Source: an uncultured Candidatus Saccharibacteria bacterium (GTDB taxonomy: Bacteria; Patescibacteriota; Minisyncoccia; Phycocordibacterales; CAYSCM01). Taken from it: a stretch of 64,000 bases of DNA. The notes under the pieces were generated by a model. The model had not been told where the DNA came from. It ran no database searches and was given only the letters and a program-made list of their open reading frames with translations. Position numbers and translations under genes: made by a program. Position 1 is the stretch's first letter; every line of letters starts with the position of its first letter. The stretch is from contig CAYSCM010000001.1 in the NCBI GenBank assembly GCA_964429815.1, positions 164,240 to 228,239 on the forward strand, given 5' to 3'. Positions 6,506-9,157 of this stretch are shown here, one piece after another.

Positions 6506-6535
6506 ATAGCGAAAGGATGAATTGCTCAAGCGGAA
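6506..6535 (-). pseudogene. relic of the holA 3' terminus (PLEQFILSL*)
   Basis: Minus-strand CCGCTTGAGCAATTCATCCTTTCGCTATAA matches the authentic holA end ALEQFILSI* at 8450..8480. Marks a segmental duplication junction. Confidence 0.55.
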
Positions 6536-6568
6536 AGGAAGAAACCCCACTTGCGTGGGGCTTCAAGG

Positions 6569-7198
6569 TTAACCTTCGTTCTCGAATCTCTCTTTAACGA
6601 AAGTAAGGAACTGTGAACTTACGACCGTCATGGCGGTCATGAGGCCGTATAAGATTACGAAGGTTATCACGGTCCAGAATGTTGACAGGGTCCTGCTGAA
6701 GATGGTCATCCAAGCGAAATAGAATACCATAACTGCGATGAGCCAGCTGCCAACATCCAAGTTGCGAAGTGTTATGGGACGAAGCCATTCGCATCGTTCG
6801 AAATACTTCGGCTTGCACTGCGCCCGAACATAAAAACGGGTAATGATCGCAGCGATGCCGAGGGCACTCATGAGAACAAACCACCAGTGTGATAATTCTC
6901 CCATTTTCAGTATCGCAGCGTACTCCAAGAAACCTAGCATGTAGGGAAATGCAACATCGGGGAAACGTGGTGTCGTTCTCATAATGAGTATCCACCAAGA
7001 GTATTCCGTTACTACCAGAAGTATTGCACACAATACTGCAAAAGCTTGAAGATAGAGCAACACGGACTCTTTTGTTTCTGCCATCCTCAAGATCAATCCA
7101 CCAAGAGCGATGCTTTGGATTACTCCAAGCGAGGTGAGGTATGAAGAGGCAAAAAGTTCTTCAGAACGTCTCCGGAACTCGGCAGCATTTAGGGGCAT
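6569..7198 (-). CDS. polytopic membrane protein, paralog 1 (unknown family)
   Basis: MPLNAAEFRRRSEELF... with six or more TM helices. Terminator hairpin AAGCCCCACGCAAGTGGGGTTT plus T-run downstream. Confidence 0.6.
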   Translation of the reverse strand: MPLNAAEFRRRSEELFASSYLTSLGVIQSIALGGLILRMAETKESVLLYLQAFAVLCAILLVVTEYSWWILIMRTTPRFPDVAFPYMLGFLEYAAILKMGELSHWWFVLMSALGIAAIITRFYVRAQCKPKYFERCEWLRPITLRNLDVGSWLIAVMVFYFAWMTIFSRTLSTFWTVITFVILYGLMTAMTVVSSQFLTFVKERFENEG

Positions 7199-7314
7199 GA
7201 CAGCCTCCATAGTCGGTTAGAACTTTTCGAAGCGACCTTACCGCAGAATCTTGCAAAAATCAATAAATATGTTATCATACTTTCTGGCAAGCTAGATTTT
7301 TGAAGGAGACGCAG

Positions 7315-7431
7315 ATGCAAGAAAGCCCTCAAAAGGAACAGGGGTTTTGGGATCGGTGGGGTACTCTGGTCTTCATCGGTCTACTCTTTGGGACCATGGC
7401 TGTAGTCGCGGCAAGCAAGCACTTCGCTTAG
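7315..7431 (+). CDS. small membrane peptide (38 aa), divergent from paralog 1
   Basis: MQESPQKEQGFWDRWGTLVFIGLLFGTMAVVAASKHFA. Conserved promoter-like TTGCAAAAATCAATAAATATGTTATCATAC upstream. Terminator GGGCCCC...GGGGCC plus T-run at 7442..7485. Confidence 0.4.
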   Translation: MQESPQKEQGFWDRWGTLVFIGLLFGTMAVVAASKHFA

Positions 7432-7489
7432 CGTCCCACGAACGGGCCCCGATGGTTTTTCATTGGGGCCTTTTCTTTTTCCTTAAATA

Positions 7490-7519
7490 GAAAGAATGAA
7501 ACGCTCAAGCGCGAAAAAA
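7490..7519 (-). pseudogene. relic of the holA 3' terminus (ALERFILSI*)
   Basis: Minus-strand GCGCTTGAGCGTTTCATTCTTTCTATTTAA. Second duplication junction. Confidence 0.55.
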
Positions 7520-7546
7520 TAAGCCCCGCATACGCGGGGCTCGGGT

Positions 7547-8177
7547 TCAGCTTTGGCGTTCAAATTCTTCCTTAAGCGACCTGAGGAAGTTTGAACTTAT
7601 GATGGCCATCGAAACCATGAGGCCGTACAGGATGATGAAAGTTGTCACGGTCCAAAACGCTGACAGTGTTTTGCCAAAGATGGCCATCCATAGAAAATAG
7701 AAGGCCATCACAGCTACGAGACCACTGCCAATGTCAAGGTTGCGTAGCGTCAGTGGCCGGACCCGGTCGCATTCTTCGAAATATTTTGGTTCGCATTGCC
7801 CTCGTACGTAGAAGCGCGTGATGATCGCTATGACGGCTGAGGCGGTCATACTGATATACCACAGGGGTTCCTTGCCTATCAGCCAGCGCAATCGACACAT
7901 ACTCAAGGATTCCTAGCAGGTACGGAAAGACCGCGTCGAGAAAACTTGGTGTTTTCCTCATAATTATTAGCCACCAAGTATATTCAGTTACCACCAGAAG
8001 TATTGCAAGTATTGCGGTCATGCCTTCTAACATGAGAACTGTTGAGGTTGGCGATTCAGCTATTTTTAGTACGAGTCCACCAAGGGCGACACTTTGAATT
8101 ACGCCGATCGAACTGAGATAAGACCCTGCAAACATTTCCTCGGAACGTCTTCTGAATTCCGCTGCGTTTAAAGGCAT
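7547..8177 (-). pseudogene. polytopic membrane protein, paralog 2, disrupted by a +1 frameshift
   Basis: Two overlapping track ORFs (7734..8177 and 7547..7906) together cover the full length of paralog 1. The junction is near 7873..7887, where CTGGCTG should be CTGCTG to read ...EYVSIAL-LIGKEPLWYI.... Confidence 0.55.
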
Positions 8178-8284
8178 CGATACCTCCTTAGATCAGATTC
8201 GGGGCAAGTTTACAGGAAATATTGTAAAAATCAATAAATGTGATATAACTGGCTTGAAAGTTCTACTTCTTATTGGAGGTATCC

Positions 8285-8392
8285 ATGGCCCGTGAATCCA
8301 AAGGTTTCTGGCAAACCTGGGAAGCTCCTATTGGGGCTGCACTTATGCTCCTGGTACCCGCCATAGTGTTGGTTCTACTCATCAAATGGTGA
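8285..8392 (+). CDS. small membrane peptide (35 aa), divergent from paralog 2
   Basis: MARESKGFWQTWEAPIGAALMLLVPAIVLVLLIKW. Shares the GFW..W motif plus TM with the peptide at 7315. Conserved upstream promoter-like sequence and downstream terminator. Confidence 0.4.
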   Translation: MARESKGFWQTWEAPIGAALMLLVPAIVLVLLIKW

Positions 8393-8449
8393 GGAAAACG
8401 AAACCAACTCGAAGAGGCCCGTCGCTTCAGCTGGGCCTTTTCTTTTTTA

Positions 8450-9157
8450 TTAAATCGATAAAATAAATTGCTCAAGCGCGACGGGGAGTTCGTGTTCTCC
8501 GCGACGAGCGTCGTGGTAGAGGCGGACAAGCTCGTGGGAGAGTGTCAAAAGCTCTTCTCGCGTGTAATTTTTCGCAAAACTATGTGCTTTTGAAAATACA
8601 AACGGCGAAAGCCCGCTCTCTTTGGCATTTTTCGAGGCGCTCGCGAGGAGCATCCCTTTCACGATCCAAAAGAGCATTCCGTGAAGCTGCTCCTCCTCGG
8701 CGCCGGTTGCCCGCGCCTTTTGATACAAGACCCAGGCATTTTTCCGATCACGGCGACCGAGGGCGTCAGTGAACGCAAACACGTCAAACGATTCCTTCTT
8801 TCCCTTCGGCAACTCAACGATTTCTACTTTTTCTGCATGCCTTTCGATCTTTTTTTTAAGTTCGGCCTTGGGTTTGCTCTGAAGCACGATAAAAATATTT
8901 TCCGACTGCGCAAAATCAGCGATCTTCTCAGCAACAGACCCATCGGCCTCCTCTAAAAGTTCATCGAGGACAATCACAATTTTGTCGTGAAAGAGGTCCT
9001 GCGCACCCGCGTATTCTTCAAGCCTTCCGCTCTCAAGATCCTCGGGGGTTATGCGCACGATGGATGGCTCATCGTAGCGACGACTCAGCCCTTCGGTGAG
9101 GGTATCGAGTTTTTCGAGCGCTTTCGCACGGTCATTGCCAATAATTGCGTAGAACAT
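8450..9157 (-). CDS. DNA polymerase III delta subunit-like protein (short HolA candidate)
   Basis: The N-terminus MFYAIIGNDRAKALEKL resembles the delta-subunit LLYGxxxxL start. 235 aa. Weak call. Confidence 0.4.
   Translation of the reverse strand: MFYAIIGNDRAKALEKLDTLTEGLSRRYDEPSIVRITPEDLESGRLEEYAGAQDLFHDKIVIVLDELLEEADGSVAEKIADFAQSENIFIVLQSKPKAELKKKIERHAEKVEIVELPKGKKESFDVFAFTDALGRRDRKNAWVLYQKARATGAEEEQLHGMLFWIVKGMLLASASKNAKESGLSPFVFSKAHSFAKNYTREELLTLSHELVRLYHDARRGEHELPVALEQFILSI

Follow-up and report, generated by a model that had tools for sequence, protein, structure and literature searches.

The genomes of Patescibacteria (the candidate phyla radiation, CPR) are tiny and contain few mobile elements that can be recognised, and their gain of accessory genes is poorly understood. 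In integrative elements and cis-mobilisable elements (CIMEs), for example ICESt1 and the CIME at fda, repeats rebuild the 3' end of the target gene, and both tandem accretion and decayed members occur. Restriction-modification systems, for their part, are addiction modules. Insertion with long target duplication is known from restriction-modification gene complexes (Nobusato et al. 2000; Furuta et al. 2010; PMC2853133): no mobility genes are involved, the repeats exceed 30 bp and often span start or stop codons, most cases come from species with natural competence, and amplification via the repeats has been demonstrated, while the mechanism of insertion is unknown (PMC2853133). An excerpt of PMC3146451 describes a vcrABC island integrated at ssrA in Dehalococcoides, and an excerpt of PMC10187176 documents natural competence in Saccharibacteria. 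Here, a 64,000-nt stretch of contig CAYSCM010000001.1 from an uncultured Candidatus Saccharibacteria bacterium (the window) is analysed, in which two related units of ~1 kb lie between a holA-like gene (holA below), encoding a DNA polymerase III delta subunit, and a tRNA-Lys gene. Their sequence makes it reasonably probable that they are two diverged, recombinase-free, two-gene cassettes inserted in tandem with long target duplication, and such cassettes probably spread through transformation and then homologous recombination, accreting in tandem.

As in insertion with long target duplication, defined by repeats >30 bp, the repeats measure 30-32 nt in the window and 31, 32, 36, 64 and 109 nt at other loci, they span the stop codon and would permit tandem amplification, and the units hold only two genes, with no mobility gene in the flanking gene tables. 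Unlike the described cases, the cargo is a peptide and a channel-like membrane protein instead of a restriction-modification system, the host belongs to the Patescibacteria, and the repeats are not near-identical (73-88%) and differ in the way that coding alleles do. This allele-like divergence argues for transfer between lineages together with a donor gene end, not for fresh duplication of the recipient's target. With CIMEs and integrative elements the locus shares repeats that rebuild a gene 3' end, related units in tandem and decayed members, whereas here no cognate integrase was found nearby, no att core is shared and the units are only ~1 kb. On this interpretation, insertion with long target duplication would extend beyond restriction-modification systems, and the window together with seven further sites (five with host-gene-end repeats) would show a single cassette family that gains entry to essential genes at their 3' ends without the help of a recombinase.

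Copies of gene ends at holA and other host genes

Each unit contains a gene for a protein with six transmembrane (TM) helices, a divergent gene for a peptide of 35-38 aa, two terminators and a 30-32-nt copy of the holA 3' end (Table 1). A repeat search returned families spaced 979, 967 and 971 nt apart, and the two units, A and B, are 78% identical overall at the nucleotide level, in agreement with the sequence-only reading, which had proposed that a ~1-kb unit occurs twice with holA-end relics at its junctions. The three copies of the holA end, the functional one (J3) and two relics (J2 between the units and J1 at the outer edge), have an identical inner boundary. Among 60 window open reading frames (ORFs) tested, only holA has a downstream copy of its own last 30 nt, with 24 of 30 positions matching, while the best of 60 shuffled controls reached 19 of 30; the relics are thus not a product of chance. 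J2 is 80% identical to J3 (24/30 nt) and J1 77%. From J3, J2 differs at six nucleotides, four of them in third positions, with one amino-acid change, and J1 at seven nucleotides with two amino-acid changes; the stop codon is kept in all three copies. Under random substitution the probability of the amino-acid pattern is 0.002 for J3/J2 and 0.01 for J3/J1.

The similarity of the relics is set against the age of the units. Synonymous sites between the two membrane protein genes (mem1 in unit B, mem2 in unit A) are saturated (pS 0.70, dS ~2), and the remaining non-coding parts of the units are 52-63% identical even under optimal alignment. Had J2 evolved neutrally since the units split, only ~30-45% identity to J3 would be expected, against the 80% observed (P = 1e-4 to 2e-8). 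Since the units have a dS of ~2 yet the relics remain 77-80% identical with differences biased to third positions, the sequence pattern indicates that the relics must mostly have diverged as translated holA ends, and not as neutral junk left since an old duplication.

The same module was sought at other loci. A word-indexed protein search returned only the window's own proteins, and a full HMMER search with a two-paralog profile was then used, which gave 275 relatives of the membrane protein at E values up to 1e-3. Genomic contexts were recovered for eight close relatives (30-42% identity), each at a different place, all among housekeeping genes and in neighbourhoods that look CPR-like. A scan of metagenome contigs with the family alignment yielded one locus (L008), and no relatives of the module were found in viral contigs or in phage and plasmid collections. 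Peptide and membrane protein genes are both present at six further loci (L005, L007, L008, L009, L010 and L011/L012) and on a short contig, L016, which supports the conserved pairing described in the sequence-only reading.

Host-gene 3'-end repeats are found at five of these six two-gene loci, next to cysS, an mreB-like gene, a ykuD-like gene and two unknown genes; they span the last 10-36 codons of the host gene and their copies are 73-88% identical. At cysS (L005) a 64-nt repeat of 84% identity, spaced 1046 nt, bounds one unit with a frameshifted membrane gene. At the 241-aa gene of L009 the repeat is 109 nt long, 84% identical and spaced 1082 nt, and 28 of 29 aligned codons specify the same residue; the terminator hairpin is also repeated on both sides of that unit, at 94% identity. 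The ykuD-like gene (L011/L012) has a 36-nt repeat spaced 1288 nt, in which DIGTKVVVRD* and NIGTKVVVRD* are accompanied by seven synonymous codon changes. Four 32-nt copies are present at the 185-aa gene of L008, together with a complete unit, a unit that has the peptide gene alone and a remnant of 134 nt, and the mreB-like gene (L007) is followed 44 nt after its stop by a 31-nt copy that carries seven nucleotide differences, six of them in third positions, and no amino-acid change. In L005, L009 and L011 a single unit lies between the gene end and the relic, an arrangement that cannot stem from tandem duplication and is a signature of insertion.

On L016, a perfect 23-nt terminator hairpin, AAAGCCCCGCGCGAACGCGGGGC (23/23, positions 3-25 and 1008-1030), stands on both sides of the module, its two copies 1005 nt apart, on a contig too short to reveal a host gene or to tell a tandem array from a repeat-bounded single unit.

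Nine comparisons between a functional end and a relic were made at six host genes. Third positions account for 47 of 70 differences (P = 8e-9 under the assumption of an even spread), and the residue is unchanged in 106 of 123 codons; with one pair per locus the count is 35 of 48 (P = 2e-8). A model in which both copies start identical, the relic then evolving neutrally and the functional end under constraint, predicts a third-position share of ~0.45 and is rejected (P = 2e-4 and 1e-4). The ratio of nonsynonymous to synonymous differences, pN/pS, is 0.18 (Nei-Gojobori, eight of the nine pairs, with L011 left out). The bias to third positions thus suggests that the repeats are diverged coding alleles lying side by side and not decayed fresh duplications, and the codon-aware divergence of such gene-end copies may serve as a record of transfer between lineages.

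In a relative whose holA is 74% identical, represented by three independent assemblies (L013-L015), the order is polA - holA - methyltransferase - tRNA-Lys - DoxX-like gene - SpoU, so that the synteny flanking the window's units is kept while the module is absent. A methyltransferase takes the place of the module there, and the interval from holA to tRNA-Lys thus appears to be a variable slot. Together with the single-unit insertions and the coding pattern of the relics, this module-free relative speaks against the earlier proposal of two rounds of old in-situ tandem duplication that left degenerate relics. On the sequence pattern, that account is better replaced by cassette insertion and accretion. 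The structural type would then be a known one, though new in its cargo and host group and set apart by the allele-like divergence of its repeats.

Proposed insertion and accretion, and rival accounts

Under the favoured account, donor DNA of the form gene - cassette - relic would be taken up by natural transformation. On the left side the donor would recombine within the body of the host gene, while on the right side its relic, acting as a portable homology arm, would pair with the recipient's own gene end over 30 nt or more. The donor end would then become the functional end and the recipient's end a new relic, and tandem arrays could arise by repeated rounds or by unequal crossing-over between repeats. 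A portable arm of this kind would explain the coding-type divergence, the constant array boundary, the accretion, the lack of a recombinase and the minimum repeat of ~30 nt. At holA, J1 (ending SL*) would be the native end, and J2 and J3 (SI*) would have been imported with the cassettes. The ending ...ILSL* is shared by J1 and the closest holA orthologs (66-75% identity), and ...ILSI*, the ending of J2 and J3, is found in more distant holA proteins; this agrees with J1 as the native end, now moved to the outer edge of the array. A comparison of holA with its orthologs for mosaicism was uninformative at 75% identity. Should the account hold, competence and short-homology recombination would offer a testable route of gene flow for Patescibacteria.

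Several observations weigh against this account. In L007 the host gene is followed first by the relic and only then by the module, and no third copy of the mreB end was found downstream (best match 14/30, equalled by 164 of 500 shuffles), so that the module is not always enclosed by repeats. In L010 the module sits between two divergent gene starts without a host-gene-end repeat, and in L006 a truncated remnant has no repeats. No true empty site, with holA abutting tRNA-Lys, was found; the nearest relative is 74% identical and has another gene there. Furthermore, an arm of 30 nt that is 75-90% identical makes a poor recombination substrate, the first acquisition of a new gene end by a cassette lacks an explanation, and the route through transformation and RecA is one that we infer.

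Among the alternatives, amplification in place would have one repeat-flanked cassette duplicated by unequal crossing-over at the holA-end repeats, with its copies diverging where they stand. The shared inner boundary of the three holA-end copies is consistent with this, as is the closer relationship of units A and B to each other (62% identity of the membrane proteins) than to the rest of the family (at most 42%), and amplification of a repeat-flanked restriction-modification system has been shown experimentally (cited in PMC2853133). It is nevertheless improbable, given a pS of 0.70 between units whose J2 has stayed 80% identical to J3 with a single amino-acid change, and it leaves the single-unit insertions at other genes unexplained. 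Site-specific integration by a recombinase encoded elsewhere, with the repeats as att sites and the units as integrase-less, CIME-like elements accreted at the holA 3' end, draws on the target-gene 3' end rebuilt by repeats and the tandem accretion typical of integrative elements and CIMEs. Against it, the gene tables for the surroundings of the eight loci list no integrase, resolvase or other recombinase family, the repeats at the six host genes have no core in common and are between 30 and 109 nt long, and the junction does not adopt an attC-like fold; we regard it as an unlikely explanation. Integron gene cassettes, in turn, are marked by an attC imperfect hairpin with RYYYAAC / GTTRRRY cores and by the IntI integrase. 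The junction folds into two separate terminator hairpins flanking an unstructured relic, the junction sequences contain no core motif and no integrase lies close by; an attC-like structure was rejected.

It is also conceivable that the likeness of the relics has been kept not by mobility but by a non-coding function, J1 acting as a tRNA-Lys promoter and J2 and J3 as read-out promoters. J1 holds TTGAGC-15 nt-TATAAT, ending 12 nt before tRNA-Lys, with the relic stop codon inside TATAAT, and the orthologous stretch upstream of tRNA-Lys in L013 holds TTCAAA-17 nt-TATATT; the ancestral holA end may thus have doubled as a tRNA-Lys promoter. Promoter selection would, however, produce neither a third-position bias nor a preserved stop codon, and the coding-type pattern recurs at five other host genes with unrelated sequences, which makes this explanation very improbable. 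Insertion with a donor gene end remains the favoured account, and a more speculative form of it, which we hold to be rather unlikely as a whole, would see a distinct class of selfish cassette in Patescibacteria that needs no recombinase, with the gene-end copy as built-in homology arm and the TMEM175-like channel with its micro-peptide as an addiction or conflict module that retains the cassette. If the built-in arm is real, any related competent cell taking up the DNA could insert the cassette by ordinary homologous recombination, exchanging its own gene end for that of the donor.

Membrane protein and peptide cargo

The two membrane proteins are 62% identical over 208 residues, within the 60-70% that the sequence-only reading had given for membrane proteins and peptides alike, but the figure fails for the peptides, which agree at only 8 of 38 positions and have the GFW motif and a single-TM arrangement in common. 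The membrane protein has no Pfam or NCBIfam model, and no Pfam match for this domain was obtained even at E values up to 1, nor among 68 family members. An AlphaFold2 model of mem1 (mean predicted local distance difference test score, pLDDT, 95.2) has six long helices, and the bacterial TMEM175 K+ channel (5vre_A) was the top structural match by two methods, with a Foldseek probability of 0.94 and a TM-score of 0.53-0.59. Closer kinship is opposed by the fact that the likeness is at the level of the fold only (Foldseek E = 0.5) and that no sequence match was obtained to Pfam PF06736, the TMEM175/DUF1211 family, or in the PDB, where the family profile gave nothing but noise. The motif RxxxFSD, the TM1 signature of TMEM175, is absent, TM1 of the membrane protein reading RSEELFASSYLTSLG, and the family has conserved residues of its own: R15, F20, Y24, Q32, EYxWW, R78, D85, P89, G93, E96 and W110. 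Compared with TMEM175/DUF1211 channels (PDB 5vre), the predicted six-TM fold is therefore alike without detectable sequence similarity, and the model indicates a resemblance of fold, not family membership. What is defined by these searches is an uncharacterised protein family of 275 members at E up to 1e-3, with a predicted TMEM175-like fold and an obligate small-peptide neighbour.

A few distant members are fused to N-terminal Mrr_cat/NA-iREase1, Trypco2, WD40 or HEAT domains, or match PADLOC PDC-S02. Such domain fusions are seen in P0019 and other long members of alignment A4, and many others are extended at the N-terminus by 50-300 residues devoid of known domains. The fusions hint at an effector role in conflict systems, although most members have no such link. 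A literature search on mobile elements of Patescibacteria and on TMEM175 in defence found nothing relevant.

At all loci the peptide starts with a polar or basic stretch, followed by a single TM helix and a short tail. The peptides are hardly conserved in sequence, while their position, Shine-Dalgarno sequence and TM layout are conserved. In L010 (3633-3900) tandem peptide genes of 41 and 36 aa, ending GGKPLI and DGKPLF, lie upstream of one membrane gene. The conserved promoter-like sequence reported earlier is borne out: it is 86% identical over 29 nt between the units of the window, and an intergenic alignment of nine units from seven loci revealed a conserved back-to-back promoter pair, in the order peptide -10, 16-17 nt, adjacent -35 boxes (TTGCAA and TTGAtt), 17 nt and membrane-gene -10, with GGAG-type Shine-Dalgarno sequences for both genes in the nine units.

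In mem2 the extra base lies near 7880-7884 (near codon 98), outside any homopolymer. The window sequence, including this frameshift, was matched at 100% in three Logan assemblies (SRR12313479, SRR12313480 and SRR12313482), and as these come from different runs, the frameshift noted in the second paralog is not a one-off assembly error. The ratio of nonsynonymous to synonymous substitution rates (omega) is 0.13-0.14 on either side of it, which indicates that mem2 was functional until recently and that its inactivation is recent. Next to cysS in L005 (7427-8187) the membrane gene is also split by a frameshift, near codon 33, and in L006 (8001-8483) an N-terminally truncated copy abuts the RNase T gene, in an RNase T / rplT context. 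A programmed frameshift was ruled out by the different places of the shifts in the window and in L005. Decayed copies are common in the membrane-protein family, and a dead membrane gene accompanies an intact peptide ORF in unit A of the window, in L005 and in unit 2 of L008. An assignment of the membrane protein as toxin from this pattern was rejected: there is no significant excess, given that the membrane gene offers mutations a target six times as large.

The suggestion of a toxin/immunity couple, or of a channel with its regulator, is plausible. Small-protein regulators of membrane transporters include KdpF, AcrZ and MgtS. In common with these and with toxin-antitoxin or addiction modules, the cassettes are two-gene units with a 35-40-aa single-TM partner, mobile and often decayed; in contrast, their genes are divergent instead of in an operon, and no Rfam match for an antisense RNA was found, a search at gathering thresholds having returned nothing but tRNAs in the window. 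The cargo might be a TMEM175-like cation channel with the peptide as inhibitor or regulatory subunit, perhaps as a selfish addiction or conflict module, in analogy to the restriction-modification systems carried by the described insertions with long target duplication. It is possible, if somewhat doubtful on the structural model and the analogy, that a cation channel and its small membrane partner form what could be a cassette-stabilising toxin-antidote pair; alternatively, the pair may be an ordinary accessory channel with a regulatory subunit.

Layout of the locus and its neighbours

The features of the locus are listed in Table 1. The designation holA-like is the safe one, since the gene scores 67.9 bits against the TIGR01128 holA model, under the curated cutoff of 80; it also matches PF21694 (DNA_pol3_delta_C) with E 6e-8 and 33.1 bits (cutoff 27), and its conserved position after polA supports the assignment. 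Besides orthologs at 66-75% identity, weaker holA homologs were found that carry the source labels Patescibacteria or Paceibacterota, and a scan of genome contigs with holA yielded nothing but a false match to a TPR protein (L004).

Table 1. Features of the holA to tRNA-Lys interval, in window coordinates
Feature	Position	Strand	Remarks
holA-like gene (DNA polymerase III delta subunit, 235 aa)	8450..9157	-	last 10 codons are the repeated sequence
J3, functional holA 3' end ALEQFILSI*	8450..8481	-	first direct-repeat copy
Unit A	7483-8449		first unit downstream of holA; minus-strand order
Terminator-like hairpin and T-run 3' of peptide gene 2	8416..8449	+	read from sequence; missed by a simple terminator scan
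Peptide gene 2 (35 aa, single TM)	8285..8392	+	MARESKGFWQTWEAPIGAALMLLVPAIVLVLLIKW; ORF with GGAGG Shine-Dalgarno
Bidirectional promoter core, unit A	8218..8246		adjacent -35 boxes for both genes; 86% identical to 7247-7275
Membrane protein paralog 2 (mem2)	7547..8177	-	disrupted by 1-nt insertion; ORFs 7734-8177 and 7547-7906
Intrinsic terminator of membrane gene 2	7521..7542	-	
J2, inter-unit holA-end copy ALERFILSI*	7483..7514	-	relic reading frame at 7483-7512
Unit B	6504-7482		between unit A and tRNA-Lys
Intrinsic terminator of peptide gene 1	7444..7471	+	
Peptide gene 1 (38 aa, single TM)	7315..7431	+	MQESPQKEQGFWDRWGTLVFIGLLFGTMAVVAASKHFA
Bidirectional promoter core, unit B	7247..7275		TTGCAA-16-TATCAT towards the peptide gene; on the opposite strand TTGATT-17-TAAGGT towards the membrane gene
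Membrane protein paralog 1 (mem1), intact	6569..7198	-	209 aa from MPLNAAEF; an upstream ATG at 7210 falls within the Shine-Dalgarno sequence
Intrinsic terminator of membrane gene 1	6541..6564	-	
J1, outermost holA-end copy PLEQFILSL*	6504..6535	-	13 nt from tRNA-Lys; relic reading frame at 6504-6533
tRNA-Lys(UUU)	6416..6490	-	conserved downstream neighbour of holA, also in the relative L013

Base composition gave no diagnostic signal: the GC content of the units is slightly lower (45-50%), but that of holA and of a neighbouring NUDIX hydrolase gene is low as well. This NUDIX gene (9159-9581, minus strand) fits precisely between polA and holA, where stop and start codons overlap, whereas in the 74%-identical relative polA directly abuts holA (L013, 3599-6001 and 6001-6708); it has no flanking repeat and constitutes a second presence/absence difference at the locus. 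In the same relative, the gene in the cassettes' slot (L013, 6705-7364) encodes a methyltransferase of the Methyltransf_11/25 type, dependent on S-adenosylmethionine, and overlaps the holA stop (ATGA), and the stretch between its own stop and tRNA-Lys bears a weak resemblance to the J1 region. The 3' end of the L013 tRNA-Lys, GAGTCCTGGTGGGCGGAC, is repeated ~140 nt downstream of the tRNA (7411-7484 and 7620-7645), and this repeat has the appearance of an att-type relic left at tRNA-Lys by a different integrative element.

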